Assembly: GCA_964632945.1 (NCBI GenBank)
Contig: CAZWCX010000005.1
Location: forward strand, 9,305 to 73,304
Reading direction: 5' to 3'
Source of the DNA: an uncultured Planctomycetia bacterium
GTDB taxonomy: Bacteria > Planctomycetota > MHYJ01 > WSZJ01 > CAZWCX01
DNA length: 64,000 nt
The position numbers were made by a program, and so were the translations under genes. The stretch's first letter is position 1. Each line of letters begins with the position of its first letter. Of the stretch, positions 6,532-50,935 are shown in pieces. A model generated the notes under the pieces. The model did no database searches. It was not told where the DNA came from and was given only the letters and a program-made list of their open reading frames with translations.

Positions 6532-6532
6532 A

Positions 6533-13474: not shown

Positions 13475-13966
13475 CTAGTGGGTGCTCTTCGCCGCGTCGA
13501 GCGTCGCCCAATTCGCGTCGCTCGCCTGCTTGCTCGCGTCGTTCGCGGCGGGCGCCGGGCCCTTCGTCGTGCGGGTCACCGCCTGCGCAGCCTGCTGGGC
13601 GAGCAACCGCGCCTGCACTCGGGATTGCGCGGACGCCTGTCCGGCCAGTCGGGCCGCCAGGCTCGCCTGCGTGCGACCGATCTCCTCGACGTTCAGCGTC
13701 GAACTTCCGAGATTCGCCGACACGTTCGCGGTGGCGTCCGCCGCCGTGCTGATGCCGCCGCTCGGCACCGGAACGGGCGCATCCACCGGCCCCGCCACCG
13801 CGGGAGCGATCATCATTGCCGAAGCGGCCATCTGCATCTGTTGGGGAGGATTCGGATCCGGGCACCCCGGGTCCACGCCCGGATTTCAGGTAGGCAGGGC
13901 GAGGGCGCCACAGGGGACGAAGGTCAGGAGCGCGAGCAGCGCGAGGGAACCAATCGCCGTCTTCAT
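13475..13966 (-). CDS. Secreted Pro/Ala-rich protein with an in-frame TGA at codon 27 (candidate UGA-recoded or selenoprotein, 163 aa)
   Basis: SD GGGAGGT, ATG 13966, signal peptide MKTAIGSLALLALLTFVPCGALA, then LPT, TGA (13886..13888), then NPGVDPGCPDP continuing in frame into ORF 13475..13876. Confidence 0.7.
13856..13885 (-). other. SECIS-like hairpin immediately 3' of the in-frame TGA
   Basis: A-ATCCGGGC-GTGGACCCGGGGT-GCCCGGAT, an 8-bp perfect stem. An alternative upper stem GGACC-CGG-GGT(G)CC starts 11 nt after the TGA. Folded by eye only. Confidence 0.45.
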
Positions 13967-17100: not shown

Positions 17101-18582
17101 GTTGGCGAGCTTGATCGCGACCGCGACCTCGAGCCCGCCCGGGCGGCCGTCGCGCGTGCGCGCGCCCTTGGGGAAGAGGTCGTCCTTGGGGGCGCGCACG
17201 ACCTTGTCGAGCGACTTTCCCTCGACGTAGTCCATGACGAGGTAGGGCGTATCGCCGTACATGCCGATGTCGTACACCGCGACGATGCCGGGGTGGCGCA
17301 GCTTCGCCGACGCCCGTCCTTCGCGCCAGAAGCGCGCCTGCAGGAGGTCGGGGTCGCCGCTGGCGGCCGTGAGGACCTTGATGGCGACATAGCGGTTGAG
17401 CTTGGGGTCGTACGCCTTGTAGACCGCGCCCATTCCCCCCTGGCCGAGCTTCTGGACCAGGTAGTAGTCGGCGAAGCGTTGCCCGGTGGCCTTGATCTGC
17501 TCGATCTGGCGAACGTCCAGGCCGGCGCGCGAGGCGATGGTGGTGACGCCGGCGCGGGAGCGGTCGACGCTGCTGTCCGCCTTCGAGGTCGCGGCGGGAG
17601 AGACCTTGGACACGGCCAGCTGGCTGTCTCCCTTCCGGCTGTCCCCCTTGGGAGAATGGCGGGTCTGGTCGACCGCGGAGCGCGGACCGCCCGCGACCGA
17701 GGGGGCGGCTGCGGCGGCGCCGGGGGGATCCATGACCGTGGGCTCATGGGGGGCGAGCCCCGCGGAGTCCGACTTCTCGGGGACCTTGGGCAGATTGGGC
17801 TGGAAGCCCGAGGGGCGGCGACCCGGCGGGATCGGGGGTGCGGGGGTCCGGGCGACCGGCATCTCCGGCATGGTCATGGCCGCCTGGAAGTTCGGGTCCT
17901 GCGGCGAGGGGTCGGCGGCGGAGGAATCTCCGTGCGGGATCCCGGGGGCCGACGCCGGGGGCGGGGCCCCGGGCATGCCCGGGAAGAGCGGCGCCCGGCG
18001 CGGCGGCGTTCCGCTCGCCGGCATCTCGGCCATCGTCATGGCCGCCTGGAAGTTCGGGTCCTGCGGCGAGGGGTCGGCGGTGGAGGAATCGCCGTGCGGA
18101 ATCCCGGGGGCCGAAGCCGGGGGCGGATCCATGGGCAATCCCGGGAAGAGCGGCGCGCGGCGCGGCGGCGTGCCCGTCGACGGCGCGTCGGCCATCGTCA
18201 TCGCCGCCTGGAAGTCGGGGTCGCCCGGGTCCCCGGCGCGCGCCGGATCCGGCGCGCCCGTCCCGCCGAGCGGACTCGCGTCCGACATCGTCATCGCATC
18301 CTGGAACCCCGGGTCGCTCATCCCCACCGCGAAGTCCGCGCCGGGATCGTCCCCCGCGCGCGGGCCGGGCGTGGGGCCCGAGGGCGCGAAGGAACGGGGC
18401 TTCACATCCGCTTCTTCGACCGTGCGCCCGGACGGCTCGCCTTCCTTCTCCGGGGAAGGCCCGCCGAACAGGACGTCGGGTACCGTCTCATCGGGCCGGC
18501 GTTCTCCCTTACCCGGCGGCGTCGGCGGACGCGTGCCGGCCTTCTCGTCCTTCTTCGGGTTCGTTTCGGATGGTTCCACCAT
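14155..18582 (-). CDS. Ser/Thr protein kinase with long Pro-rich repetitive N-terminus, TM segment and TPR C-terminus
   Basis: GQGGMG, VAIK, HRDIKPANIL, DFG and GTVLYMAPEQ motifs; TM ILLGAAVVAALGVAGYFVM; TPRs. Confidence 0.93.
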   Translation of the reverse strand: MVEPSETNPKKDEKAGTRPPTPPGKGERRPDETVPDVLFGGPSPEKEGEPSGRTVEEADVKPRSFAPSGPTPGPRAGDDPGADFAVGMSDPGFQDAMTMSDASPLGGTGAPDPARAGDPGDPDFQAAMTMADAPSTGTPPRRAPLFPGLPMDPPPASAPGIPHGDSSTADPSPQDPNFQAAMTMAEMPASGTPPRRAPLFPGMPGAPPPASAPGIPHGDSSAADPSPQDPNFQAAMTMPEMPVARTPAPPIPPGRRPSGFQPNLPKVPEKSDSAGLAPHEPTVMDPPGAAAAAPSVAGGPRSAVDQTRHSPKGDSRKGDSQLAVSKVSPAATSKADSSVDRSRAGVTTIASRAGLDVRQIEQIKATGQRFADYYLVQKLGQGGMGAVYKAYDPKLNRYVAIKVLTAASGDPDLLQARFWREGRASAKLRHPGIVAVYDIGMYGDTPYLVMDYVEGKSLDKVVRAPKDDLFPKGARTRDGRPGGLEVAVAIKLANEICRAMDYAHSQGIVHRDIKPANILIDLETKKPVITDFGLAKDLTESEQRLTKSGATLGTVLYMAPEQAAGDQSKVGPRSDIYALGAMLYELLTGRPPLEGGETIQLIQRVLNEDPRQPSAVVPTLDRQLDILCMKALEKDPDRRYPTAGEMAEDLWRIMKGEHILAHAPSIDYKIKRFVKRKRTPILLGAAVVAALGVAGYFVMQTEWAKQRASYLEAALTGKKEAEDRRNRALARLADAQAAFNQLVVASRQGDARSLPTGLQRVTEHVRGTLEIEDLREARVLEASAFRWAGQRDPAIAALDALLTAHPDFPAARLERARVRLDEYAERLSAARLAAVTAERLLEDPPGPLAAWTGSAAWEKADAGLTALRLQAAEDLAKIQAWPEEPALLELSRALAGTLRDGADGTAGAALEKAVAAVESADEGWWALARLALDDGRPQEALVALAELHKRHSALPSVPRDRFIAALARALTTEPAAEGADRVFQRTRDELDALVARDSAFPGTAIVRGWTARLLFETGRSPADRALPLLEETLAAWKDVASTPAVELFRARSWSDLADLHLAAGRVEAALPALQETLTALAKADPQAADADLLDRRAGLLSRVAESQRALGKDARESYRSAIALYDTLLTRQADDTALTRARGIAWHDLGQALADQKEDSTPAFEKGFADLSRALDRSPADKDARRMRIRCLAGMSGQYSQAGKEAEKFKYADLMRADCEAALADFPEDAELYKLLANAEGTLAFWFDIPQDLRSSYYARAQEHYQQAIDRGVKDAWHSLGMLYVAMGGAEKALHAFRRYRSVVPHENPELDKLMEGLEAGLQRATLTRDLDAANDLTLNQKYLEAEKAFEQAFHKLYGYFKLCTPEEVEKILRENGSRIAISHYNLACVYAQASAGKAGSQTRPAVVADQKKAYQDLAFEELEKAAELNWGKELDPSGKIVPSARTRDQTEKDTDLAPLHGDPRWKKFLERMAK
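17869..18315 (-). repeat. 162-nt (54-aa) tandem repeat inside the kinase N-terminus
   Basis: The motif CGCCTGGAAG recurs at 17881, 18043 and 18205 (period 162). DPxFQAAMTM occurs three times at that period, plus a degenerate DPGFQDAMTM copy near 18315. Confidence 0.85.
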
Positions 18583-35498: not shown

Positions 35499-35768
35499 AT
35501 GAAGCACCTGTTCACACTGGCCGCAGTGCTGGTGCTGGTCGGGACGCTCTTCGTGGGCGTGCCTGCCAGCGTGTTCGGGTGACCCCCGCCTGGGGCCCCG
35601 CCTCCCCCGGACATTACGCCTGGCCCGGGTCCGGTTCCGGATCCGCCGGGGGGAGATGATGATGGTGGTGGTGACGACGATGACGGTGGTGGCGACGACG
35701 ACGACGGCGGCCCGGAGACGCAGGTTGATGACGGGCCCGACGCTGGCGAAGAGCGCTATCTGATGTAA
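35499..35768 (+). CDS. Small secreted Pro/Gly/Asp-rich peptide with an in-frame TGA at codon 28, copy 1 (89 aa if read through)
   Basis: SD GGAGTAGGA, MKHLFTLAAVLVLVGTLFVGVPASVFG, TGA (35580..35582), then PPPGAPPPPDITPGPGPVPDPPGGDDDGGGDDDDGGGDDDDGGPETQVDDGPDAGEERYLM-TAA. Missed by the ORF track. Confidence 0.7.
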
Positions 35769-36688: not shown

Positions 36689-36958
36689 ATGAAGCACCTG
36701 TTCACACTGGCCGCAGTGCTGGTGCTGGTCGGGACGCTCTTCGTGGGCGTGCCTGCCAGCGTGTTCGGGTGACCCCCGCCTGGGGCCCCGCCTCCCCCGG
36801 ACATTACGCCTGGCCCGGGTCCGGTTCCGGATCCGCCGGGGGGAGATGATGATGGTGGTGGTGACGACGATGACGGTGGTGGCGACGACGACGACGGCGG
36901 CCCGGAGACGCAGGTTGATGACGGGCCCGACGCTGGCGAAGAGCGCTATCTGATGTAA
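36689..36958 (+). CDS. Small secreted Pro/Gly/Asp-rich peptide with an in-frame TGA at codon 28, copy 2
   Basis: Identical by eye to 35499..35768. SD AAGGAG. TGA at 36770..36772. Confidence 0.7.
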
Positions 36959-37199: not shown

Positions 37200-39146
37200 A
37201 TGGAGTTGATCCTGAAGAAGGTCAGGGCCATCCAGCGGTGGCTCTTCCTCGTTCGCTTTGGCGAGAACTCGGTACGCCTTCTCTTCTATGCTCTGTGCAT
37301 CTTCTCGCTCCTGGTCCTGCTGGATCGCCTGATCTTCCTCAATGTCGATCTCTACCAGGGCATGGTGATCATGACCGGCACCGCTCTCCTCGGCGCGGCG
37401 GTCTGGGTAGCTCTGTCCCGGATCACCCTCCTGCGTGCCGCCATGGTCGCGGACGAGCAGCTCGGCCTGAAAGAGCGGCTTTCGAGCGCCTTGTCCGTCG
37501 GTCAAGCCGGCACTCCCATGGAGCAGGCCCTGATCCTCGATACCGCCCAGAAGGCGCAGAAGGTGGTCGTCACGCGCACCGCGTCGTTCCGGTTCCCGCG
37601 GGAGTCGCGGTTCTTCTACATCCCCGCGGCCCTCATCGTCCTCTCCCTCATGGTCCTCCCGCCGCTCGACCTCCTGGGTCGGCTCGAGGCCAAGACCATC
37701 AGCGAAGCCAAGAAGGAAGAGGCCAAGAAGGACTCGCTCAAGGTGGAGAAGCGCACCGAGAAGATCAAGAAGCGCCTGGAGGAAAAGAGTCTCCCCGAAC
37801 TCGAGGGCGTGATCAAGAAGCTGGAAGCCCTCTCGGAGGATCTGAAGGCACAGAAGACCGACAAGGTCGACGCAATGGCCAAGCTCTCGAACCTCTCCGA
37901 TGAATTGAAGGATCGTCGCGAGCAGCTCGGGGAGAAGATGGCGGTCAAGCGCGACCTGGAGTCTCTCTCCGGTGAAGAAGGCGAGATGGGCAAACTCGCC
38001 GAGGCCGTCAAGTCGGGGGATTGGGAAGAGGCCAGAGAGCAATTGAAAAACCTCGAGGAGAAGCTCAACAGCGACTCCCTCACGCCCGAGGAGAAGCAGA
38101 AACTCCAGCGGCAGCTTCAGCAACTCGCGAAGTCCCTCAAGAATGATCGCAATCTGGAGCGGCTCGGGAAGTCGCTCGAGAAGCTCGCCGAGCGCATGGA
38201 GAAGGTGCAGGACAAGCTGGGCGAGGAGGATCGCAACTACGCCAGCAAGGCATTCGAAGAACTCGATGAGCAGATGAAGACTCTCGAGGATCTGTCGGAA
38301 GAGGAACTGGAGGAGTTGGAGAAGACCCTCGACGAGCTGGAACAGGCCAAGGACGACCTGACCGAGGAAAACGGCGAGGAAGGCCAGCAGGGCCAAAATG
38401 GCCAGGACGGACAGCAGGGTCAGGAAGGCCAGGAAGGCCAAGAGGGACAGGAAGGTCAGGAAGGCCAGGAAGGCCAGAAGCAGGGCCAGCAGGGCCAGAA
38501 GCAGGGGCAGCAGGGTCAGAAGCAGGGGCAACAGGGTCAGAAAGGCCAACAAGGACAGAAGGGCCAGGAAGGCCAGAAGAAGGGCGGCGACCAGGAGTGC
38601 ATCAATTGCAAGAAGAAGATGAGCCAATCCGGCGGAACCTGAAGTAGCGGCCAGGGCAAGAAGCCCGGGACCTGAAAGGTCCTCGGGGCCTACGGGCTAG
38701 GCCGATCGAAAGCGAACCAGGGTCAAGGCGGCAAGGGCAGCCAGAGCGGCAAGGGTCTGGGATCCGGGGGTCCGGGAACGGGCAAGGGCGGCAAGGTGCC
38801 GGAGAGCGGCAATCGCAATGTCCGATTCGACAAGGAGAAGATCAAGGGGCTCCTGGACAGCAAGGGGGAGATCCTGGGCGGCATCTTCGTAAAGGGCCAG
38901 GCCACCAAGGGCGAGGCCAAGCAGGAGTACGTCGAGGCCTACAAGGCCGAGATTCAGGAATCCACCGACGCGCTCACCAAGGAAGACATTCCTCTCGGTT
39001 ACAAGCAATTCGTCTCGACCTACTTTGACTCGATCGATGGCGCCGGGGAGGATGACTCCGCGGCCGACGAGGGCGCTACACCTCCGTCCGGCGGTTCCCC
39101 CGGGGAGGGGACCAAGCCGACCGAGGGGCAAGGGGGCGGGAAGTAA
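37200..39146 (+). CDS. Membrane-anchored coiled-coil protein of the kind found with MoxR/vWA operons, with two in-frame TGAs (648 aa if read through)
   Basis: ORFs 37200..38642 and 38796..39146 share a frame, interrupted only by TGA 38640..38642 and 38673..38675. N-terminal TMs, coiled coil, GQ repeats, CINC-x10-TGA-x10-TGA, Gly-rich linker, C-terminal ALTKEDIPLGYKQFVSTYFDSI. Confidence 0.75.
38382..38579 (+). repeat. Gly-Gln low-complexity tandem repeats (9- and 21-nt units)
   Basis: GQQGQNGQDGQQGQEGQEGQEGQEGQEGQKQGQQGQKQGQQGQKQGQQGQK... Confidence 0.85.
38654..38666 (+). other. SECIS-like hairpin 11 nt after TGA 38640
   Basis: GGGC-AAGAA-GCCC, extendable by CC/GG past a bulged A. A second hairpin CCCG-GGACC-TGAAA-GGTCC-T-CGGG (38664..38687) holds the next TGA in its loop. 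Confidence 0.4.
38687..38703 (+). other. SECIS-like 17-nt hairpin exactly 11 nt after TGA 38673
   Basis: GGCCTA-CGGGC-TAGGCC, a perfect 6-bp stem with a G-containing loop. Uses codons CTA and CGA, which look rare in this GC-rich context. Confidence 0.6.
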
Positions 39147-39152
39147 CGCAGC

Positions 39153-40214
39153 ATGCATTCTCCCGCTTCCCGGACGGAGCGGCGGCCGCCGCTCTGGATC
39201 CCCGCCGTGGTCGTCGCCCTGTTCGGCCTGGGATGGCTCCTGCTCCTTGCCGGCCATCGTTCCGGGCAGTGGATCGGCCGCGTGGTCGTCTACACCAGCC
39301 TGGACGAGCTCTACTCCGAGCCGATCCTGCGCGAATTCGAGCGCCGCACTTCGGTCCGGGTCGACGTCGTCTATGACAGCGAGGCAACCAAGACGGTCGG
39401 GCTGGCCAACCGGATCCTGTTCGAGCGCCGGAACCCGCGGGCGGACGTGTTCTGGAATTCGGAAATCCTGCACACGATCCGATTGCAGGCCGAAGGGGCG
39501 TTCGAGGCGTATTCCAGCCCGTCGGCCCAGGACATTCCCGCCGAATTCCGGGATCCTGGCGGCGTGTGGACCGGCTTCGCCGCGCGCGCGAGGGTCATCG
39601 GCGCGTACAAGGACGTGCTCACGAAGCAGGGCTATCCGCCGCGAGGCATCGAGGAACTGGTCCACGCGCGTTTCCGGGACCGCATCGGCATCGCCTCGCC
39701 CTTTTTCGGGACCACGGCGACGCACATGGCCGCGCTCTGTCAGGCCCTGGGGAAGAGTCAGACGGTAGCGCTGCTGCAGAAACTGAAGAATCATGGCCTG
39801 CGCGTGTATCCCGGCAATGGCCCGGTCGCCGATGCGGTGGCACGGGGCGAGATCCTGGCCGGGCTCACCGACACCGACGACGTGGCCATTCGCAAGCAGG
39901 CCGGGAAGCCGGTGTTCGCGATCTACCCGGACGCGATGGGGATGGGAACGCTGGTCATCCCGAACACGGTGGCCCTGGTGAAGGGCGGACCGAATCCGGA
40001 GTTCGGTCGGATGCTGATCGACTTCCTGCTTTCGCGCCAGGTCGAAGAGAAGCTGGCCCGCGCACGCGGGCGCCAAATGCCGGTCCGGGACCTCCCGGTT
40101 CCCGAGGGGGACATGACCCTCTCGCAGATCCGGCCGATGAAGGTCGATTGGTCCACCCTGCCGCGGCACTTCGACGAAATCCTGCCCGAGTTGAAGCGGC
40201 TGTTCATGGATTAG
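39153..40214 (+). CDS. ABC transporter substrate-binding protein (Fe3+/thiamine-type cluster D family)
   Basis: VVVYTSLD, PRADVFW, WTGFAARARVI, GLTDTDD and LVIPNTVALVKG motifs. Confidence 0.88.
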   Translation: MHSPASRTERRPPLWIPAVVVALFGLGWLLLLAGHRSGQWIGRVVVYTSLDELYSEPILREFERRTSVRVDVVYDSEATKTVGLANRILFERRNPRADVFWNSEILHTIRLQAEGAFEAYSSPSAQDIPAEFRDPGGVWTGFAARARVIGAYKDVLTKQGYPPRGIEELVHARFRDRIGIASPFFGTTATHMAALCQALGKSQTVALLQKLKNHGLRVYPGNGPVADAVARGEILAGLTDTDDVAIRKQAGKPVFAIYPDAMGMGTLVIPNTVALVKGGPNPEFGRMLIDFLLSRQVEEKLARARGRQMPVRDLPVPEGDMTLSQIRPMKVDWSTLPRHFDEILPELKRLFMD

Positions 40215-40245
40215 CAGGGGCGGTCCGCGCCTCAGGAGGTGGCGG

Positions 40246-41829
40246 GTGCCTCGCCGGGTCGTCGTCCCCGCCGCCGCGATCGCGATTCTCCTCCTCGCGC
40301 TGCTTCCCCTGCTTTGGGTCTACCTCCTGCCCTGGGTCGACGCGGGCGGGGGCGGAGCGTTCCTCCGCGCGCTCCAGGAACCGCTTCGCTGGACCCTTGC
40401 CGCCCGCAGTCTGGCCGTGGCCGGCCTGGCGGCGACGGCGGCGACGGCGATCGGCCTGGCGGTCGGGCTGGCCCCGTCGCTTCCGGCAGGGAGACCGCGC
40501 ACGGTCTGGGCCGCCCTCGCGCTGCTTCCGCTCGCCCTTCCCCCGTACGTCTCGGCGGTCGGATGGATCGGCCTCTGCTCCGGCGAGGGCGGAATCGGGC
40601 GGATCCTGTCGTGGCTCGGATTCGGGCCACCGGACGTTTTTCTGAGGTCGGTCGTCGGGTGCGCCTGGGTGCATGCCCTGGCCTTCTGGCCCTGCGTCGC
40701 GCTGCTGGTGCGCGCGGCGCGGCTCGCGCTCGACCCGGCGGTCGAAGAGGCCGCGCGGCTGCACCTCTCGCCGGGCCGTGCGTGGCGGCGGGTCCTGCTT
40801 CCGGCGGTCGCCCGCGAGGCGCGGGCCGGGGCGGCGATCGTCTTCGTCCTTTCGCTGGCCGACTTCTCGGTGCCGTCGGTCCTGCAGGTCAACGTGTTCG
40901 CCCTCGAGGTCTTCACCCGCTTCGAGCAGAACTACGATCACGTCGCGGCCGCGGCCCTGTCCTTCCCCGTCCTGATCGCCGTCGCGGTGGCGATTTTCCT
41001 CGAGCGCCGCTGGGCGGGCGTCGCGGATCGAGCCTTCTCGCCGCAGGCGCGCCCCTTCGACTCCCCGGCGAGCGGACGGGCCTGGATCGCCCTGGGCCTG
41101 CCCCTGACGCTGGCGGTCGGCATCCCGGTCCTGCAGTTGCTCGTCGATGCCGGCGCCCCCGACGCGTACGTGCGCGTCCTCCTGGTTGCGGGTCGGCCAC
41201 TCGGAAACACCCTGCTGCTCGGATTCGCGGGTGCGCTCTGGGTCGGGCTGGCCGGACTGGTCCTGGCACTGTTGGTCCGCGGCGGGGCCCGCTGGCTCGA
41301 GGGCCCCGCCACCGCCGCCCTGGCGGCCTCGTTCGCGCTTCCCGCCGCGCTCGTCGGCATCGGATTGGCCCTGGTGTGGAATCGGCCCGGCCTCCCCGGA
41401 CTCGTCTACGGGAGCCCGGCCATCCTGCTCCTGGCCTACCTCGCCCGCTTCCTGCTGGTGCCGTTCCGGCTCGTCTGCGGCGGACTCGCATCCGACGAAC
41501 TGGGCGCTGCCCTCGACGCCGCCCGGCTCCACGGCCTGCCGCCGGCCGTCACCCTTTTCCGCGTGGTCCTGCCGTCGCTCACGGAGCACCTTCGCGCCGC
41601 TTCCCTCGCACTCTACGTTTTCATCGTCGGAGAGTTGGCCACCGTCGTGCTGGTCCAGCCCCCGGGATGGGACACCGTGCCGGTGCGCATCTTCCAATTG
41701 GTGCACTACGGGTACGAACGCGAGGTCGCCGCGCTTTGTGTGGTGCTGCTGGTCGCCGTGGTCGTTCCCGTCGCCGTGGCGTGGACCGCGTTCGATTCGG
41801 CCCGCTTGCATCCGCGCAAAGCCCTCTGA
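40246..41829 (+). CDS. ABC transporter permease with two fused TM domains (FbpB-like)
   Basis: About 12 TMs with two EAA loops (VEEAARLHLSP; ALDAARLHGLP). Confidence 0.88.
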   Translation: MPRRVVVPAAAIAILLLALLPLLWVYLLPWVDAGGGGAFLRALQEPLRWTLAARSLAVAGLAATAATAIGLAVGLAPSLPAGRPRTVWAALALLPLALPPYVSAVGWIGLCSGEGGIGRILSWLGFGPPDVFLRSVVGCAWVHALAFWPCVALLVRAARLALDPAVEEAARLHLSPGRAWRRVLLPAVAREARAGAAIVFVLSLADFSVPSVLQVNVFALEVFTRFEQNYDHVAAAALSFPVLIAVAVAIFLERRWAGVADRAFSPQARPFDSPASGRAWIALGLPLTLAVGIPVLQLLVDAGAPDAYVRVLLVAGRPLGNTLLLGFAGALWVGLAGLVLALLVRGGARWLEGPATAALAASFALPAALVGIGLALVWNRPGLPGLVYGSPAILLLAYLARFLLVPFRLVCGGLASDELGAALDAARLHGLPPAVTLFRVVLPSLTEHLRAASLALYVFIVGELATVVLVQPPGWDTVPVRIFQLVHYGYEREVAALCVVLLVAVVVPVAVAWTAFDSARLHPRKAL

Positions 41830-41865
41830 TATCATGACCCGGATTCGGTAAGGATTCAGGCCGCG

Positions 41866-42960
41866 ATGGTTGCGTCGATTCCCACCCTCGGCACACCGGT
41901 CCCGGAGTCTCTCCCTTCGGCGCGGGCGCACGGCCCCGCGCTCGAACTCGAGTCCGTGCGGCTCGAGCGGGCGGGTACTTGCGTCCTCGACGGCGTCTCC
42001 CTGCGCGTGGAGGCCGGCGAACAGGTGGCCGTGTTCGGCCCCACCGGGGCCGGCAAGACGACCCTGTTGCGCGTGATCGCGGGACTGCTGGAGCCGAACG
42101 CGGGGGAAGTGCGCATCGGCGGCCGGACCGTGTGCGGTCGCGGGCCCGCCGAGCCCCCGCATCGGCGCGGGGTGGCCATGGTATTCCAGGGGCTCGCCCT
42201 GTGGCCGAACTTGACCGTCTTCGAACACGCCTTCGAGGCCGCGCGCGCCCGCGGTCTGGACGAAGCGGCCGCCCGGGACGAAGCCAATGCCGCGATCGCC
42301 GCGGTGGCGCTCGAGCCGCTGGCGGGGGAGCGTCCGGCGCGGCTCTCCGGAGGCGAGCGGCAGCGGCTGGCGATGGCGCGCGCCCTGGCAGCGAAACCGC
42401 ACTTGCTGCTGCTGGACGAACCGTTTGCGAACATCGACCGCCCGGCGCGGGATCTCATGATCCGGCGCCTGGATGCCCTCCGGCGCGAGTCCGGCTCGGC
42501 GGTCGTGTGGGTGACGCACGACGTCCATGAAGGCCTGGAAGGATCGGGCCGGGTGGCGATCCTGCGCGCCGGTCGCATCGAGCAGGTCGGCTCTCCCTGC
42601 GAGGTCTTTGCCGCGCCGGTGTCGCGGTTCACCGCGGCGTGCGTCGGGTTTTCCGCCTTTCTGCCGGCGCTGCGCGTCTCCGCAGGCGAGGTCGAAACCC
42701 GCTGGGGCCGCTTCGTGGTCGCCGGCGGCGCCGAAGGGGACGGCGACGGATTCCTCGCCCTGCGCCCCCGGGCGCTGGCGCGGGACGAATCGTCCCCGTT
42801 GCGCGGGATGGTGGCTTCCTGCGGGTTTCGCGACGGCGCATACCTTGCGCGGGTGCAGGTGGACGGAGCGGATCTCGTGTGCGCCGTGCCGGAACCGCTG
42901 GCGCCCGGCATGGAAGTCGGGGTCCGGATCTCCGGTTGCGGAGTTTTCGTGCGTGCCTGA
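41866..42960 (+). CDS. ABC transporter ATP-binding subunit (FbpC/PotA-like)
   Basis: GPTGAGKTT, LSGGERQR, LLLDEPF and VTHD motifs; TOBE-like tail. Confidence 0.92.
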   Translation: MVASIPTLGTPVPESLPSARAHGPALELESVRLERAGTCVLDGVSLRVEAGEQVAVFGPTGAGKTTLLRVIAGLLEPNAGEVRIGGRTVCGRGPAEPPHRRGVAMVFQGLALWPNLTVFEHAFEAARARGLDEAAARDEANAAIAAVALEPLAGERPARLSGGERQRLAMARALAAKPHLLLLDEPFANIDRPARDLMIRRLDALRRESGSAVVWVTHDVHEGLEGSGRVAILRAGRIEQVGSPCEVFAAPVSRFTAACVGFSAFLPALRVSAGEVETRWGRFVVAGGAEGDGDGFLALRPRALARDESSPLRGMVASCGFRDGAYLARVQVDGADLVCAVPEPLAPGMEVGVRISGCGVFVRA

Positions 42961-43038
42961 TCCGGCTGCGACCGGTTGTCCTTCGAGTGCTCTCCTTCGC
43001 GTTCCGGGCCGCGGCCCGAACCGGGAAACGACCTTCGC

Positions 43039-43983
43039 ATGATCGTACTCGTCCCGCGCGGCTTCGTCCGATGGGTCGCGATCCTCGTCCTCGGGATCGC
43101 GATCCCGGGTTGCGACCGCGTCCAGGCCGCGACCCAGCCTTCCGCGCCGGGAGCCTTCATCATCGGCTCCGCCGGCAATCAGCCGGGACGCTTCGTGAAG
43201 CCGCGCGCGGTGGCGGTCGCACCCGACGGGACCGTCTGGGTGATGGACCGGTCCGGCCGTCTGCAGGCGTTCGACGACCGCGGGAACTACCTCCGCGGCT
43301 GGATCATGCGGGACGTCGAAAAGGGAACGCCCGAGGACATCGAGTGCGATCGCGAGGGCAACATCCTGGTCACCGAGACCCACTATGCGAAAATCACCGT
43401 CTATTCGCCCGCCGGGGACGTCGTGCGCGAGTGGGGATCGTGGGGCAAGGAGCCGGGACAATTCATCTACCCGGTGGGACTGGCCGTGGACGCGGACGGC
43501 AACGTCTTCGTGAGCGAATACGGAGGCAATGATCGGGTGCAGAAATTCGACCGGCACGGCAACTTTCTGCTCCAGTGGGGGCGCTTCGGCGAGGCCCGCG
43601 GGGAGTTCACGCGGCCCGAAGACGTGTGCGTCGACGACCGCGGACGCGTCTACGTCGCGGACTCCTGCAACCATCGGATCCAGGTCTTCGACTCCTCGGG
43701 GGCGCTGCTGGACGTCTGGGGCGAAGTGGGCGACGCCCCGGGGCAGTTGCGCTACCCGTACGACGTCGAGATCCGGCCGGACGGCGATCTCGTCGTCTGC
43801 GAGTACGGCAATCACCGCGTGCAGCGCATGACCCCGGAGGGCCGGCCGCGGTCCTCGTGGGGCCGCGTCGGTCGGGCCGACGGCGAGCTCAACTTCCCTT
43901 GGGATCTCGCGGTCGACCGGCAGGGCCGCTGCCTCGTCGCCGACACGCAGAACCATCGCGTGCAACGGTTCACACTCGATTGA
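43039..43983 (+). CDS. NHL-repeat six-bladed beta-propeller protein
   Basis: Repeated GxFxxPxGxAVDxxGxVYVxDxxNHRxQxF units; N-terminal signal or lipoprotein-like segment (ILVLGIAIPGC). Confidence 0.9.
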   Translation: MIVLVPRGFVRWVAILVLGIAIPGCDRVQAATQPSAPGAFIIGSAGNQPGRFVKPRAVAVAPDGTVWVMDRSGRLQAFDDRGNYLRGWIMRDVEKGTPEDIECDREGNILVTETHYAKITVYSPAGDVVREWGSWGKEPGQFIYPVGLAVDADGNVFVSEYGGNDRVQKFDRHGNFLLQWGRFGEARGEFTRPEDVCVDDRGRVYVADSCNHRIQVFDSSGALLDVWGEVGDAPGQLRYPYDVEIRPDGDLVVCEYGNHRVQRMTPEGRPRSSWGRVGRADGELNFPWDLAVDRQGRCLVADTQNHRVQRFTLD

Positions 43984-43990
43984 GGCGTCG

Positions 43991-46927
43991 ATGACCTTCA
44001 GCTTTCTCAACCCCACCGCGCTGCTCCTGCTGGCGCTCCTGCCGGCGGTGTGGTTCCTCGTCCGGCACTCCCGCGCCGGGCTGGAGCCGGGACGCAAGAT
44101 CGCGTCGCTCGTGGTCCGCATGCTCATCGTCCTGCTGCTGGTCCTCGCGTTGGCCGAGATGCAGATGGTTCGGGAGACCGATCGGCTGGCGGTGATCTTC
44201 TGTTACGACAACTCGGAGAGCGTTCCGGCGGATCTCAAGCGATCCGCGACCGAGTACCTGAAGCAGAAGACCGCCGAGATGAAAAAGAACGACATGGCAG
44301 GGATGGTCGTCTTCGGCGGCGATGCGTCGATGGAGCTGTCGGCGACCAACCTGGTCGCGATCCGGCCGAATCCGAGCTCCGTGGTCGAAACCCGGGCGAC
44401 GAACATCAGCGCCGCCGTCCGCCTGGCCCTGGCGGCGTTCCCCGAAGGCACCCAGCGGCGGATGGTCCTGCTCACCGACGGCAATGAAAACCAGGGCACG
44501 GCGATGGCGGAGGCCGAAAATGCCCGGGTGAACGGCGTGAAGATCGACGTCCTCCCGCTCTCCTACGGACACGAGCGCGAGGTCTTGTTCGAGAGCATGG
44601 TCCTGCCGGCCCAGGTGCAGAAGAACGAGACCTTCGACGTCAAGATGGTGGTGAACGCGCTGCAGGACGGGAAGGGCCGGCTGCAACTGTTCGAGAACGG
44701 GGAACTCGTGGCCAACGAGGAAGTCGAGTTCAGCGCGGGCAAGAACGTCTTCGTGATCCCGCGCAAGATCGACGAGCCCGGGTTCAAGACGTACGAAGCC
44801 GTGATCACGACGGATCGGGCCGAGGACAGCGTTGCCGAGAACAACCGCGCGTACGCCTTCACCTACATCCAGGGCGAGCCGAAGGTGCTGTACATCGAGG
44901 CGGACGAGGCGGCCGCGGGGTATCTGATCGGCGCCCTGGAGCAGGAGAACATCCGCGTCGAGGCGCGCAATCTGGCCGGCTTGCCGACGTCGGTCGCCGA
45001 GCTGCAGAACTTCGATTCGCTCGTATTCTCGAATGTTCCCGCGTATGCCCTGTCGCGCGATCAGATGAAGATGATTGCCAGCGCCGTGCGCGATCTCGGG
45101 CTGGGCTTCGTCATGATCGGCGGGGACGAGAGCTTCGGGGCGGGGGGCTGGCAGGGGACCCCGATCGAGGAGATCCTGCCGGTTTCCATGGACATCCCGC
45201 AGCGCAAGGTGATGCCCAAGGGGGCCCTGGCGGTGATTCTTCACACCTGCGAGTTCGCCGACGGGAATACCTGGGCGAAGGAGATCGCCAAGGCGGCGCT
45301 CCACGCCCTCTCCAAGCACGACCTCTACGGCGTCCTGGTGTACGACATGCGCGGAGAGCGCTGGGCGATCCCGTTGGTGGAAGCGTCCGACAAGGCGCGC
45401 CTGGTGCGGGAGATCGACACTCTGAACCCGCTGGACATGCCCTCGTTCGACCCGACGCTCCAGCACGCCTACGCGGGTCTGAAGAACTGCAGCGCCGCGC
45501 TTCGCCACATCGTAATCATCTCCGACGGGGACCCGAGTCAGCCCTCCCCGGGCCTCGCCACCGCGATCGTCAACGCCAAGATCACGATCAGCACCGTCTG
45601 CATCAACCCGCACAGTCCGCGCGACTCGACCGTGATGCAGCAGTTGTCGATCTGGGGCAAGGGACGCCACTACGACGTGGTCAATCCCCGCCACCTCCCG
45701 CAGATCTTCGTCAAGGAGGCGGCGGTCATCCGCAAGTCGCTGATCTTCGAAGAGACGTTCATCCCCCGCACGGTCTACTTCTCCGAGGTGATCCGCGGCC
45801 TCGCCGCGGGCGAGATCCCCTCCCTGCACGGGTACGTGGCCACTTCCCCCAAGCCGCGGGCGGAAGTCCCCATGGTGAGCCCCAAGGAGGACGCCGACCC
45901 GATCCTGGCGCACTGGCGACACGGAATGGGCAAGACCGCCGCCTTCACGTCGGACGCGAAGAACCGCTGGGGGGCCAACTGGGTGACCTGGGCGAAGTAC
46001 GCCAAATTCTGGGGCCAGGTCGTGCGCTGGACCCTGCGCGAAACCGGTCGCGGCGATCTGCGGGTGGTCAGCCAGGTCCGCGACGGCCAAGGCGTCGTTA
46101 CGGTGGATGCGGTCGACCGCGAGGGGAAGTTCGTCAACTTCATGGAGATGCGGGCGCGCCTGGTGGATCCCGAGTTCGAGGGCCGGGATCTCCGCTTCGA
46201 GCAGACCGGTCCCGGCCGATATGAGGCCCGCTTCCCGGCCGACCAGGTCGGGCCGTACATGGTGAACATCGAGCATCAGGGCGAATCCGGCGTCAAGGGC
46301 CAGACCAGCCTCGGCGTCGCGGTCTCGTACGCCGCGGAGTACAAGGACGTGGATGCGAACGTCGCCTTGCTCACACGCCTGGCCGAATCCACCGGCGGGA
46401 GGCTCCTGACCCCGGCCGACGACGTCTTCCTGCACGACGCCACGCGCACCCGGGTGCCCCAGGACCTATGGCCGACGCTGCTTTGGCTGGCGGTTTTGCT
46501 TTTCCCACTCGACGTCTTCCTGCGCCGGGTCATGGTCGACATGAAGGAGGTCCGCAAGGCGCTGGAGAAGGTCGCGGCCCATCTGCCCCTGATCGGCGCG
46601 CGCTTCCGTAAGGAGCGGCCCGCCGTCGACCCGACCCTGTCCGCGCTGCTGGCCCGCAAGGAATCGCTGCGCAAGCAGGAGGCGGAACGCAAGGTCTTCC
46701 AGGCCAGCGAAGAGGAACTCAAGGAATCCCCGGCGATGCCGACCACCTTCGCGCCGAGCGTCGGCGCTCCGGGCAAGGCCCGTCCGGCCGAACCGGCCGC
46801 CCGCCGCGACAAGCCCGCCGAGGTCGCCAAAGCCGCCGGCGCGGAGGACGAGGACGGCTACACCAACCGGCTGCTCAAGGCCAAGAAGCGGGCCATGGAG
46901 GACATGAAGAAGAAGCCGGGAGAATAG
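43991..46927 (+). CDS. vWA-domain protein with glutamine-amidotransferase-like domain
   Basis: BatA-like N-terminal TM; MIDAS DNSES and LLTDGNEN; GLGFVMIGGDESFGAGG; a second, degenerate vWA domain. Confidence 0.88.
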   Translation: MTFSFLNPTALLLLALLPAVWFLVRHSRAGLEPGRKIASLVVRMLIVLLLVLALAEMQMVRETDRLAVIFCYDNSESVPADLKRSATEYLKQKTAEMKKNDMAGMVVFGGDASMELSATNLVAIRPNPSSVVETRATNISAAVRLALAAFPEGTQRRMVLLTDGNENQGTAMAEAENARVNGVKIDVLPLSYGHEREVLFESMVLPAQVQKNETFDVKMVVNALQDGKGRLQLFENGELVANEEVEFSAGKNVFVIPRKIDEPGFKTYEAVITTDRAEDSVAENNRAYAFTYIQGEPKVLYIEADEAAAGYLIGALEQENIRVEARNLAGLPTSVAELQNFDSLVFSNVPAYALSRDQMKMIASAVRDLGLGFVMIGGDESFGAGGWQGTPIEEILPVSMDIPQRKVMPKGALAVILHTCEFADGNTWAKEIAKAALHALSKHDLYGVLVYDMRGERWAIPLVEASDKARLVREIDTLNPLDMPSFDPTLQHAYAGLKNCSAALRHIVIISDGDPSQPSPGLATAIVNAKITISTVCINPHSPRDSTVMQQLSIWGKGRHYDVVNPRHLPQIFVKEAAVIRKSLIFEETFIPRTVYFSEVIRGLAAGEIPSLHGYVATSPKPRAEVPMVSPKEDADPILAHWRHGMGKTAAFTSDAKNRWGANWVTWAKYAKFWGQVVRWTLRETGRGDLRVVSQVRDGQGVVTVDAVDREGKFVNFMEMRARLVDPEFEGRDLRFEQTGPGRYEARFPADQVGPYMVNIEHQGESGVKGQTSLGVAVSYAAEYKDVDANVALLTRLAESTGGRLLTPADDVFLHDATRTRVPQDLWPTLLWLAVLLFPLDVFLRRVMVDMKEVRKALEKVAAHLPLIGARFRKERPAVDPTLSALLARKESLRKQEAERKVFQASEEELKESPAMPTTFAPSVGAPGKARPAEPAARRDKPAEVAKAAGAEDEDGYTNRLLKAKKRAMEDMKKKPGE

Positions 46928-46994
46928 CGGGGCGCCCGCGCCCCCGGAATTCCCTCACGATTCGTCGTTCGAAACCCTCTCGAGGAACGCCCGA

Positions 46995-48005
<1,011 letters not shown>

Positions 48006-48015
48006 CGGAGATACG

Positions 48016-48906
48016 ATGCCCACCAAGGCCACCGACCTGCTCGACGCCGACTTCATGGCGAAGCTGGACCAGCTCAACCTGGTCTCGCGCAAGATTTTCA
48101 CCGGGCGCATGAAGGGCGAGCGGCGGAGCAAGAAGAAGGGGTTCTCGGTCGAGTTCGCGGACTATCGCGACTACGCCCACGGCGACGACCTGCGGTTCAT
48201 CGACTGGAACGTGTACGGCCGGCTCGACCGGATCTTCATCAAGCTCTTCTACGAGGAAGAGGACCTCCACGTCTACGTGCTGGTCGACGCCAGCGATTCG
48301 ATGACGTTCGGCTCCCCGTCGAAATTCGACTACGCCCGGCGGGTGGCGGCCGCGCTCGGCTACATCGGCATCAGCAACCAGGACCGCGTGTCGGTCCAGG
48401 CCCTCTCCGCCGACGGGTTCCAGGTCTTCCCGCTCGCGCGCGGAAAGAAGATGGCCTGGCGCATGTTCGACTTCATCTCCGGCCTCAAGGCGGGCGGCGG
48501 AACCTCGCTCACGCGGAGCTGCAAGGAGTTCACCATCCGCAATCGCGGCAAGGGGATCCTCGTCATCCTCTCCGATTTCCTGGACAAGGACGGCTACGAG
48601 CAGGGGCTCAAGCAGTTCATGTACAATCACATGGACGTCTTCGTCCTTCACCTCCTGTCGCCCGAAGAGATCGACCCGCCGATGGTGGGCGACCTCCGCC
48701 TGATCGACGTCGAGGACGCCGACGTCGCGGAGGTCTCCGTCACCGCGGGACTCCTCGCCTCCTACAAGCGAAACCTGGCGGCCTACTGCCAGCGCCTCAA
48801 GGAGTTTTGCACCCATCACGGGTTCGCCTACCTGTTCACCAGCACCGCCGTGCCGTTCGACCAGCTGGTGCTGAACTACCTGCGCCAGGCCGGCATGTTC
48901 AAATAG
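48016..48906 (+). CDS. DUF58-domain protein
   Basis: SVEFADYRDYAHGDDLRFIDWN...LVDASDSM motifs; adjacent to moxR. Confidence 0.92.
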   Translation: MPTKATDLLDADFMAKLDQLNLVSRKIFTGRMKGERRSKKKGFSVEFADYRDYAHGDDLRFIDWNVYGRLDRIFIKLFYEEEDLHVYVLVDASDSMTFGSPSKFDYARRVAAALGYIGISNQDRVSVQALSADGFQVFPLARGKKMAWRMFDFISGLKAGGGTSLTRSCKEFTIRNRGKGILVILSDFLDKDGYEQGLKQFMYNHMDVFVLHLLSPEEIDPPMVGDLRLIDVEDADVAEVSVTAGLLASYKRNLAAYCQRLKEFCTHHGFAYLFTSTAVPFDQLVLNYLRQAGMFK

Positions 48907-48914
48907 GGAAGACG

Positions 48915-50783
48915 ATGGGCAATTTCCTCGACCCGGGAGCCTTCGCCCTGCTCGGGCTGCTGCCCGTCATCGTCCTGTTCTACATCCTGAAGCTGAAGCG
49001 GAAGGAGCATGTGATCGCGTCGACCTTCCTGTGGCGGAAGAGCATCGACGACCTGCGCGTGAACGCGCCGTTCCAGAAGCTGCGCCAGAACCTGCTCCTC
49101 TACCTGCAGCTCTTCTTCCTCGCGCTGGCCGTCTTCGCGATGGCGCGCCCGTTCCTCAAACTCCGCGGCTTCGAGGGGCAGAGCGTCATTCTGCTCTTCG
49201 ATACCTCCGCCAGCATGCTCGCCACCGACGTCGAGCCCACGCGGTTCGAAGCCGCCCGGCGCATGGCGATCGAGATGGTGGATGACATGAGCCGCGGCGA
49301 CAAGATGATGGTCATCACCTTCGACGCGAAGTCGGCGACGGTCTGCTCCCTGACCACCGATCGATCCCTCCTGCGCCGGGTGATCGGTTCCCTGGAGGCG
49401 CGCCAGACGCGCACCAGCATCCGCGAGGCGCTCACCATCGCCCAGGCCGCGGCGTCCGCGCAGGACAATCCGGAAATCGTGATCCTGAGCGACGGCGGCT
49501 TCCCCGACCTGCCCGCAAACCTCGACGTCAAGGCGCGCGTCAGCTACATCGCGGTCGGGAAACGCAGCCGCAACCTCGGTATCGTCGGTCTGGAGCCGCG
49601 CCGAAACGTGGACGTCGGCAACGAATACGAGGTCTTCTGCAAGGTCCAGAATTCGACGGAAACGGACTGGGCCGGCGTCGTGGAGTTCCACCTCAACGGA
49701 CAGCTTACCGACGCGAAAGAAATCAAGATCCCCAAGGGGGATCGCGGCAGCGTCCTGTTCAACCGGCCCGGCATCACCGACGGCGTCGTGCAGGCCCGTC
49801 TCCAGGGGGAAGACGATCTCTCCTGCGACGACCAGGCCTGGCTCGTGCTCGCGCCGGAGCGGAAAACCTCCGTCCTGCTCGTGACCTCCGGCGGGAACTA
49901 CTTCCTGGAGAAGGTGCTCGACAAGGATCCGACCCTGCGTGTGGAACGCGCCAGCCCTTCCACGTTCGAGTCGATCCCGGCCGGAGAGTTCGAGAAGTGG
50001 GACGTGTTCGTCTTCGACGGCGTGTCTCCCGAGCGGCTCCCCGCACAGGGACGGTTTCTATTCTTCCACGCCATCCCCAAGCTGCAGGGGTTCGAGGACG
50101 GCGGAGAACTTCCGTCCCCGACGGTGCTCGACTGGTCGCGCGCGCATCCGGCCAACCGGTTCGTCAACTTCGCGAACCTCGAGGTCATGAAGGCCCGATT
50201 GGTGAAGTACCCGAAGTGGGCGGAGCAGATCCTGGAGGCCGAGGGCGGGCCGCTGATTCTGTCGCTTGACCGGGAACTGACCCGGGCCCTGATCACCACC
50301 TTCGACGTGTTCGAAAGCGACTGGCCCCTTCGCCTGTCGTTCCCGATCTTCGTCGCCAACTCGATGCAGTGGCTGGGCGGACGCGACCGCATGTCCGCGG
50401 GGGAGCAGGTCCGGACCGGCGAGGTGTACTCGTTCATGCCCGATCGGGGCGCTCGCGAGGTCACCATCACGCTCCCGGGCGGGGAACCCGTGACCCTGCC
50501 GGTGGGGAGCGAGCGACGGTTGCTCTTCGGCGAGACTCGGCGCATCGGACTGTATGCCGTGAGCATCGCCGAACGACCCGACCGCTTTTTCGCCGCCAAC
50601 CTCCTGGATCCGAACGAGTCCGCCACCCTCCCGAAGGAGTCCTTCCGGGTCGGCGATCAATTGGTGAAGGGGACGAAGGAACCGGTGGAGGCCAACCGGG
50701 AGGTCTGGCATTGGCTCGCCATCCTCGCGCTCACCCTGCTGATGGCGGAGTGGTACATCTTCAATCGGCGGGTCTTCCTCTAG
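48915..50783 (+). CDS. BatA N-terminal plus vWA domain protein
   Basis: FLDPGAFALLGLLPVIVLFYILK, STFLW, MIDAS DTSASM, LSDG; C-terminal TM (WHWLAILALTLLMAEW). Confidence 0.9.
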   Translation: MGNFLDPGAFALLGLLPVIVLFYILKLKRKEHVIASTFLWRKSIDDLRVNAPFQKLRQNLLLYLQLFFLALAVFAMARPFLKLRGFEGQSVILLFDTSASMLATDVEPTRFEAARRMAIEMVDDMSRGDKMMVITFDAKSATVCSLTTDRSLLRRVIGSLEARQTRTSIREALTIAQAAASAQDNPEIVILSDGGFPDLPANLDVKARVSYIAVGKRSRNLGIVGLEPRRNVDVGNEYEVFCKVQNSTETDWAGVVEFHLNGQLTDAKEIKIPKGDRGSVLFNRPGITDGVVQARLQGEDDLSCDDQAWLVLAPERKTSVLLVTSGGNYFLEKVLDKDPTLRVERASPSTFESIPAGEFEKWDVFVFDGVSPERLPAQGRFLFFHAIPKLQGFEDGGELPSPTVLDWSRAHPANRFVNFANLEVMKARLVKYPKWAEQILEAEGGPLILSLDRELTRALITTFDVFESDWPLRLSFPIFVANSMQWLGGRDRMSAGEQVRTGEVYSFMPDRGAREVTITLPGGEPVTLPVGSERRLLFGETRRIGLYAVSIAERPDRFFAANLLDPNESATLPKESFRVGDQLVKGTKEPVEANREVWHWLAILALTLLMAEWYIFNRRVFL

Positions 50784-50864: not shown

Positions 50865-50935
50865 TGGGGCGTGGTGTAACGGTAGCACGACAGACTCTGG
50901 ATCTGTCTGTCTAGGTTCGAATCCTAGCGCCCCAG
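50865..50935 (+). tRNA. tRNA-Gln (anticodon CTG), CCA not encoded
   Basis: Acceptor stem TGGGGCG/CGCCCCA, anticodon arm ACAGA-CTCTGGA-TCTGT, T arm CTAGG-TTCGAAT-CCTAG. Confidence 0.95.

Follow-up and report, generated by a model that had tools for sequence, protein, structure and literature searches.

A 64,000-nucleotide stretch of contig CAZWCX010000005.1 from an uncultured Planctomycetia bacterium, hereafter the window, carries on its forward strand a reading frame that begins with an ATG at 37200, ends with a TAA at 39144–39146, and comprises 648 sense or recoded codons plus the TAA, its only interruptions being two TGA codons (Table 1). Comparison with related genes makes it very probable that this frame is one conserved selenoprotein gene encoding two selenocysteine (Sec, U) residues, U481 and U492.

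A gene interrupted by two UGA codons

The list of predicted open reading frames (ORFs) cuts the frame into two pieces, 37200–38642 (480 amino acids) and 38796–39146 (116 amino acids), and the second of these, the tail ORF, occurs as a separate database protein (P0128). Read through, the local sequence is QECINCKKKMSQSGGT-U-SSGQGKKPGT-U-KVLGAYGLGRSK. Two cysteine codons, Cys467 (38598–38600) and Cys470 (38607–38609), precede the first TGA, and the two codons on the 5' side of each TGA encode Gly-Thr (GGA ACC TGA at 481 and GGG ACC TGA at 492). An earlier note on this DNA, made from the sequence alone, had drawn attention to the spacing C467-x2-C470-x10-TGA481-x10-TGA492 and to the Gly-Thr before each TGA, and the window sequence confirms both.

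Table 1. Features of the interrupted gene, its candidate RNA hairpins, and the genes directly downstream (window coordinates).
Feature	Coordinates	Strand	Remarks
Read-through gene	37200–39146	+	648 codons plus TAA, two internal UGAs; full-length homologs are single ORFs
N-terminal membrane anchor	37278–37676	+	Three hydrophobic segments, about residues 27–47, 54–73, and 138–159; read from translation
Long charged helical, coiled-coil-like region	37677–38369	+	About residues 160–390; weak SMC/Rad50/MCE-type coiled-coil matches only
Gly/Gln-rich low-complexity linker	38370–38597	+	GQEGQEGQ..., GQKQGQQ...; length differs between orthologs
Cys/Sec motif	38598–38675	+	C467-x2-C470-x10-U481-x10-U492; read from translation
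UGA1	38640–38642	+	Codon 481, proposed Sec; Cys (TGC) in ortholog L008
Small hairpin	38654–38666	+	GGGC-AAGAA-GCCC, +15 to +27 from UGA1; probably incidental
SECIS candidate for UGA1	38664–38687	+	Core GGGACCU-GAA-AGGUCCU (38667–38683); UGA2 in apical loop, +34 to +36 from UGA1
UGA2	38673–38675	+	Codon 492, proposed Sec; TGA in all five distinct orthologs (window included)
Tail	38676–39143	+	Gly-rich spacer and conserved C-terminal domain; ends EDIPLGYKQFVSTYFDSI
SECIS candidate for UGA2	38687–38703	+	GGCCUA-CGGGC-UAGGCC, 17 nt, starts 11 nt after UGA2; G-rich loop +21 to +25
ABC importer substrate-binding protein	39153–40214	+	PhnS/SfuA-like, match below family cut-off; starts 7 nt after the read-through gene
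ABC importer permease	40246–41829	+	Pfam/NCBIfam match below family cut-off
ABC importer ATPase	41866–42960	+	Pfam/NCBIfam match below family cut-off
NHL-repeat protein	42976–43983	+	Pfam/NCBIfam match; conserved downstream partner set is 39153–43983
SECIS, selenocysteine insertion sequence; ABC, ATP-binding cassette.

Conservation of the UGA codons and exchange with cysteine

Relatives were found partly through a tail-alignment search for small orphan-tail proteins, whose contigs were then retrieved. Several of the loci carry the same or a near-identical gene (L001, L006, and L007; L005 and L012; L010 and L013; L008 and L009; L015 and L016; L017 and L018). The closest relative, protein P0001 on contig L001, is 71% identical and ends at the equivalent position; with read-through, the L001 sequence is SCINCKKKVGQTGGT-U-KSGQGSKPGT-U-KVLGAYGLGRSK, followed by the conserved tail. 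The second TGA is kept in four further orthologs spanning 35–71% identity, and three of these have both TGAs at the same codons: L001/L006/L007 (71% identity) and, at 35–38%, L005/L012 and L010/L013. The latter two, from a groundwater Planctomycetota metagenome-assembled genome and another Planctomycetota metagenome-assembled genome, read C-x2-C-x10-U-x11-U. The two-TGA orthologs come from independent groundwater and bioreactor assemblies. In L008/L009, a TGC replaces the first TGA to give C-x2-C-x10-C-x11-U, so that the comparison of Cys with TGA at codons 481 and 492 proposed in the earlier note does find Cys at the first position in a close ortholog. No Cys counterpart of U492 was found within the close clade.

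More distant members vary the same theme. L002, L014, and L015/16 have C-x4-U, L003 has CPSC-x11-C-x8-U, L017/18 have CPS-U-x16-CGKC, and L004 has CPS-U-x9-U-x7-U, with three UGAs within 55 nt. The CPS-U of L017 and L004 stands against CPSC in L003, P0055, and P0076. The number of Sec residues per protein therefore ranges from one to three by lineage, all in the same region of the protein, and there are four potential ligands in each of several arrangements: C,C,U,U in the window, C,C,C,U in L008 and L003, C,U,C,C in L017, and C,U,U,U in L004. All 17 interruptions counted across 10 distinct family genes are TGA, with TAA, TAG, and frameshifts absent, and each frame runs on into the conserved C-terminal domain. 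Two features by which membership among selenoprotein genes was judged, an in-frame UGA kept among orthologs with coding conservation downstream and a Cys homolog at the UGA position (TGC in L008/L009; CPSC versus CPS-U further out), are thus present.

The wider family contains full-length homologs of 560–690 residues that cover 90–98% of the read-through protein as single ORFs (P0002, P0003, P0012, P0024, and others). Within the last 330 residues of 115 full-length members, Cys is present in 68, with two in 30 and four or more in 21, and absent from 47. The Cys-type members typically carry CxxC-x9/10-CxxC, in several cases as paired CxxCxGxG units such as those of DnaJ and Anti-TRAP. Scans of metagenomes and genomes with alignment A3 returned known loci only, plus L013 (the same gene as L010), and did not recover the window's own genome; a third protein search with A3 gave no additional close relatives.

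Stem-loops downstream of the UGA codons

Each UGA was examined for an uninterrupted downstream stem of 5 bp or more, with no more than one G-U pair, closing a loop of 3–11 nt that starts at +17 to +36 and has a G among its first two bases. Such a hairpin follows 15 of the 17 UGAs, compared with 25% of 5,554 other in-frame positions in these genes (P = 8e-8). Collapsing relatives to 10 roughly independent sites leaves nine hits (P about 3e-5, by arithmetic from the same numbers). The third feature by which membership was judged, a stem-loop just downstream of the UGA with its apical loop about 16–37 nt away and an early G, is thus found at 15 of 17 sites.

The candidate selenocysteine insertion sequence (SECIS) for UGA2 shows compensatory changes. 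In an alignment of the five orthologs, 94% of cells in this helix pair, as against 23–51% in slid controls, and three of its seven pairs change on both sides across two subclades (CG/GC, UA/CG, and AU/CG). The L002 clade has the loop AGUU at +23 to +26, and one G-C pair has become A-U through a Gly-to-Ser change together with a synonymous Ala change, which is anecdotal at three sequences.

The hairpin assigned to UGA1 encloses UGA2 in its apical loop. Hairpins of this kind occur in all four two-Sec genes (the window, L001, L005, and L010) and are absent from L008, where the first position is Cys. The window and L001 share GGGACCU-GAA-AGGUCCU, and L005 and L010 have (C)G(U/C)CCGGC-GAAGGCUGAAA-GCCGGGC(G). 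L004 is nested in the same way, as the hairpin downstream of its UGA2 has UGA3 in the loop. The small hairpin nearer to UGA1 was tried as its SECIS and set aside because L008, which has a Cys codon at that position, keeps it in a stronger form, and neither L005 nor L010 has it. Around the UGAs, synonymous sites are conserved between the window and L001 in 23 of 28 codons, against a background of 60% (P = 0.007); no other pair reaches significance.

These data bear on whether the UGAs might be read through without Sec, either because of context leakiness or by means of a tRNA, near-cognate or suppressor, that inserts Trp, Cys, Gly, or Arg, with the hairpins only slowing release factor 2 or causing a pause. 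An A or G follows the UGAs, and hairpins that enclose a UGA in their loop could modulate termination; in addition, about 40% of family members do without the site. Such a mechanism does not, however, account for the specific exchange of UGA with Cys codons, namely the TGC of L008 and the CPSC that answers to CPS-U, nor for hairpins that at most sites fit a SelB-type SECIS (11-nt spacer, 17 nt, GG or GU at +22 to +24). Leakiness at up to three UGAs within 55 nt, as in L004, would be extremely inefficient, and TGA is the normal stop for neighboring genes. We regard read-through without Sec as improbable.

Continuity of the tail with the upstream region

The earlier note had treated the tail as part of the same gene, partly on the strength of its C-terminal end, and several lines of evidence support that assignment. 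The family is most strongly conserved in the block that contains IPLGYKQFVSTYF, where P598, Y608, and F609 hardly vary. Between the window and L001, the rate of synonymous substitution (dS) is about 0.9–1.2, and the ratio of nonsynonymous to synonymous rates (dN/dS), the measure that the note had proposed for 38676–39146, is 0.16 for the upstream part and 0.22 for the tail. In other close pairs, the tail gives 0.17 (window versus L008) and 0.26 (L005 versus L010), for an overall range of 0.17–0.26. The tail is under purifying selection of a strength similar to that on the upstream part.

One way to do without recoding is to suppose two separate products, one that stops at UGA481 and another that starts internally, for example at the GTG at 38796. 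Gene callers do annotate the locus in this way: in every assembly examined, an orphan "hypothetical protein" follows a truncated one in place of a single gene. The tail matches 558 representative clusters; among the best 150 representative matches, about 64 are short ORFs with an initial Met. The called starts, though, are non-homologous (38796 in the window, 2039 in L001, 4001 in L005, and 2643 in L010), and many of them coincide with the conserved Met of a GMGGPG motif. Among the orthologs compared, there is no conserved start between UGA2 and 38796. The stretch from UGA1 to the called start is instead conserved in frame, including the 40 codons from UGA2 to 38796, and KVLGAYGLGRSK is identical in L001 at a dS of about 0.9. 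Furthermore, full-length relatives bear the tail within a single ORF, a tail made separately would lack a signal or anchor, and the interruptions are TGA in 17 of 17 cases. Because the homologs are single ORFs, the tail shows low dN/dS, the intervening segment is conserved in frame, and the called starts shift from gene to gene, we conclude that the tail is part of the same protein; the case of two genes with a start of their own at 38796, which the earlier note had named as contrary to its proposal, is not what the relatives display. Two separate products are highly improbable.

A low-complexity region with two stops inside 36 nt would ordinarily hint at damage, whether decay into a pseudogene or a mistake in sequencing or assembly. 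Here, separate studies have assembled the same TGAs independently, public DNA and RNA runs contain them as well, there are no frameshifts, selection is purifying on both sides, and the UGAs persist across lineages that are only 35% identical. A public DNA contig (X1) and a metatranscriptome contig (X2) cover 38326–39097 and beyond with zero differences, which therefore excludes an assembly error. X2 covers both UGAs and the tail in one RNA-derived contig, for which DNA carry-over in the library is possible. Decay or error is, on these grounds, hardly credible. A change in the meaning of UGA throughout the genome (code 4 or 25), for which nothing speaks beyond the in-frame TGAs themselves, has next to no probability, given that TGA ends the permease (41829), ATPase (42960), and NHL (43983) genes, each time followed by the start of the next gene, and that a scan of the window for other frames read through TGA yielded adjacent genes only.

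Frameshifting past both TGAs was also considered and rejected, as the +2 frame meets a stop immediately (CTG AAG TAG) and the +1 frame needs two compensating shifts before a TAG at 38698.

Protein architecture

From the N terminus onward, the protein consists of three hydrophobic segments, a coiled-coil-like region, a low-complexity linker that leads into the Cys/Sec motif, and the tail. Positive charges precede the first hydrophobic segment and sit between the second and the third; by the charge rule, the N terminus is probably inside and everything after residue 160, beyond the third membrane segment, extracytoplasmic. A conserved loop, A-x3-DExLGLKERLSSAL, lies among these segments and includes the conserved residues A81, D85, and R93. 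The conserved C-terminal domain is roughly 75 residues long, at about residues 540–612 (38817–39035). Searches of Pfam and NCBIfam gave no family match for the window protein and only coiled-coil or collagen-like noise. An AlphaFold2 model of the last 194 residues, built with 28 sequences, has a predicted local distance difference test score (pLDDT) of 55; it shows two helices at the C terminus, and the motif is not modeled reliably.

The near-identical genes L001, L006, and L007 differ in the linker by whole GEKQGQQ units (equivalent to 38400–38560 in the window), with 468 versus 482 residues before UGA1. Because these near-identical orthologs differ by whole units, the linker length is evolving via repeat slippage.

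Genomic neighborhood

The gene heads a run of ten co-directional genes (37200–50783, + strand) with gaps of 7–68 nt; beyond the NHL gene, it continues with a gene for a 978-amino acid VWA/GATase1-like protein, the MoxR gene, a putative short gene at 48005–48807, and the BatA-VWA gene, and a tRNA-Gln follows at 50865. The run may be a single long operon. Directly downstream are the genes for an ABC importer and an NHL-repeat protein, and elements of this set recur in relatives: the binding protein follows the family gene in L004, L005, L008, and L010/13, the whole transporter and the NHL gene do so in L013, and the NHL gene alone does so in L017. L002/L014 and L003 have unrelated neighbors. Because the importer and NHL genes follow in relatives, we take this set to be the conserved partner.

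The earlier note had described the gene as belonging to a MoxR/VWA operon, and part of that description stands. A VWA/GATase1-like protein, MoxR (AAA_3), and BatA-VWA are encoded in a close co-directional run at 43991–50783 (+), within 5–8 kb of the gene. The neighbors conserved in relatives are, however, the ABC importer and NHL genes. The flanks of the relatives show ABC transporter and NHL genes or unrelated ones, and end before a MoxR could appear. The locus thus resembles the Bat/MoxR-VWA "aerotolerance"-type operons in that the gene heads a packed co-directional run ending in VWA/GATase1-like, MoxR, and BatA-VWA genes, and departs from them in that the partners conserved with the family are the importer and NHL genes, with the MoxR linkage seen in this window only.

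In the C-x4-U clade, thioredoxin and phosphoglucomutase genes lie just downstream of the family gene on the opposite strand at both L002 (9838–10152) and L014 (7017–7331).

Other TGA-interrupted genes in the window

Just upstream of the gene lie two identical small genes on the + strand, at 35499–35765 and 36689–36955, with in-frame TGAs at 35580 and 36770. Each encodes a signal peptide, MKHLFTLAAVLVLVGTLFVGVPASVFG, followed by the TGA and a Pro-rich, poly-Asp/Gly acidic peptide that ends in EERYLM. The only hairpin after the TGA, CCCC-GCCU-GGGG, has its loop at +9 to +12, which is very close to the TGA, so it is not a typical SECIS. Neither gene has an NCBIfam match, and tblastn found no copy in the flanks of the relatives.

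On the – strand, 13475–13966 encodes a secreted protein with an in-frame TGA at 13888–13886, four residues past the predicted end of the signal peptide (ALALPT-U-NPGVDPGC), and an 8-bp hairpin, AUCCGGGC...GCCCGGAU, directly after the TGA. Its sequence makes it a possible further extracytoplasmic selenoprotein; the protein has no NCBIfam match. The gene is flanked by two genes for very large Ser/Thr protein kinases with TPR or other, unassigned extensions, at 6308–10096 (+, 1262 amino acids) and 14155–18582 (–, 1475 amino acids).

Discussion

The conserved UGAs, their exchange with Cys codons, the hairpins, and the continuity of the tail fit together in a selenoprotein gene whose recoding would follow the ordinary bacterial route, in which a hairpin downstream of each UGA recruits SelB with Sec-tRNA(Sec). 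That Sec is the residue inserted, and which hairpin serves which UGA, we infer from the sequences. The hairpin at 38687–38703 would serve UGA2 with classical geometry, and that at 38664–38687 would serve UGA1 while holding UGA2 in its own loop. The UGAs are only 24–36 nt apart, which forces such nested SECIS elements. A ribosome that has passed UGA1 would melt the first hairpin and so expose UGA2, whose own SECIS would by then be ready. Failure at either UGA would leave a form of 480 or 491 residues without the C-terminal domain, and selenium supply would set the ratio of the forms.

Several observations weigh against this interpretation. About 40% of the full-length members (47 of 115) have no Cys at all in the region, which is unusual for Sec, so the Cys/Sec site is not essential to the family. 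The U of the L002 clade does not align with a Cys of the Cys-type relatives (C-QGG-x-U versus C-QGG-S-D), and the AlphaFold2 model is too poor to reveal a metal site. As regards the RNA, the hairpin thresholds follow the published bacterial SECIS model and were fixed after the first examples had been inspected, several of the 17 UGA sites are phylogenetically related, and the stems of L017 and L002 have only 4 bp. With its loop at +34, the hairpin assigned to UGA1 exceeds the classical distance from the codon, and the register of its 5' arm differs between the two subclades. No Rfam model matches; nothing reached gathering score, and there was one chance small RNA hit (E = 3) in the region. 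Finally, none of selA, selB, selC, and selD lies within the 64-kb window, in which the only tRNA is tRNA-Gln. In favor of the interpretation, planctomycetes with complete Sec machinery are documented (PMC4807772).

The four Cys/Sec residues most likely form one four-ligand site, as their arrangement suggests, for binding of a thiophilic metal or for selenenyl-sulfide/selenol cycling, because relatives carry CxxC...CxxC at the same spot, often in the DnaJ-like form CxxCxGxG. A broader and rather unlikely proposal is that the family represents an evolvable extracytoplasmic Cys/Sec "knuckle," in which Cys would have been replaced by Sec independently and repeatedly at one to three positions and the nested SECIS elements would amount to a selenium-gated isoform switch. 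Such a protein could form a periplasmic selenium/thiophilic-metal module with the ABC importer, the NHL protein, and the putative secreted Sec peptides encoded at 35499–35765 and 36689–36955.

The gene points to an uncatalogued selenoprotein family whose mechanism would be the ordinary bacterial one. A recent inventory (PMC13188914, May 2026) tabulates 119 prokaryotic selenoprotein families and subfamilies, including the NCBIfam-modeled families of recent surveys, and none of its entries fits the window protein. Likewise, no NCBIfam model matches the window protein or 19 relatives, the window protein has no Pfam match, and the deep-Sep and BSepDB papers mention nothing similar, all of which agrees with the suggestion in the earlier note of a new selenoprotein family.

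The short tail ORFs suggest that the family is systematically mis-split across Planctomycetota and other phyla. With one to three Sec residues and exchange with Cys, it could serve the study of how Sec sites originate, and its nested SECIS elements, with a UGA inside the loop of the preceding hairpin, constitute a compact natural test of SelB reloading on close sites. If the interpretation is correct, Sec would replace Cys at an extracytoplasmic site that probably has four ligands, a setting that is uncommon by comparison with redox motifs of the thioredoxin fold.

The best-known bacterial counterpart for the RNA is the SECIS/SelB system of Escherichia coli fdhF. The minimal SECIS of fdhF has an 11-nt spacer and 17 nt, and the UGA2 hairpin matches this geometry. 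The 11-nt spacing, a hairpin of roughly 17 nt, and a loop G at about +22 to +24 are found at UGA2 of the window and in L003, L004, L008, L014, and L015. Unlike fdhF, members of this family have two or three UGAs 24–36 nt apart and nested SECIS elements, in which the next UGA sits in the previous apical loop, and their loop sequences differ among sites (CGGGC, GGU, AGUU, and GAA).

For the protein, one point of comparison is the CxxCxGxG zinc finger of DnaJ (PF00684) and Anti-TRAP. Cys-type relatives such as P0012 (CKECQGSG..CPGCKGSG), P0024, and P0043 carry two CxxCxGxG units 10 residues apart. The DnaJ_CXXCXGXG and Anti-TRAP models give sub-threshold matches in two of 20 members (E about 0.005) and none in the window protein, and none of these proteins has paired CxxCxGxG units scoring above the Pfam threshold, as membership of PF00684 would require. 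In contrast to the DnaJ zinc finger, the window motif, CINCKKKM, lacks GxG, and two Sec residues 10 residues apart take the place of the second CxxC.

The other comparison is with selenoproteins that, as is proposed here, have Sec in place of Cys within motifs of CxxC, zinc-ribbon-like, or metal-binding type. These include the FmdB-family selenoprotein (TIGR02605, UxxU, two Sec), MbdU, and the dual-CXXC and metal-binding double selenoproteins (NF041197, NF041115, and NF045648; PMC13188914), some of which are also precedents for two to three Sec residues per protein (FmdB family UxxU, MbdU, and dual-CXXC proteins; PMC13188914). The present family differs from all of these in that it is related to them neither in sequence nor in architecture: its motif, C-x2-C-x10-U-x10-U in the window, lies in the low-complexity linker of a 650-residue membrane coiled-coil protein, and the number and position of its Sec residues vary, from one to three.

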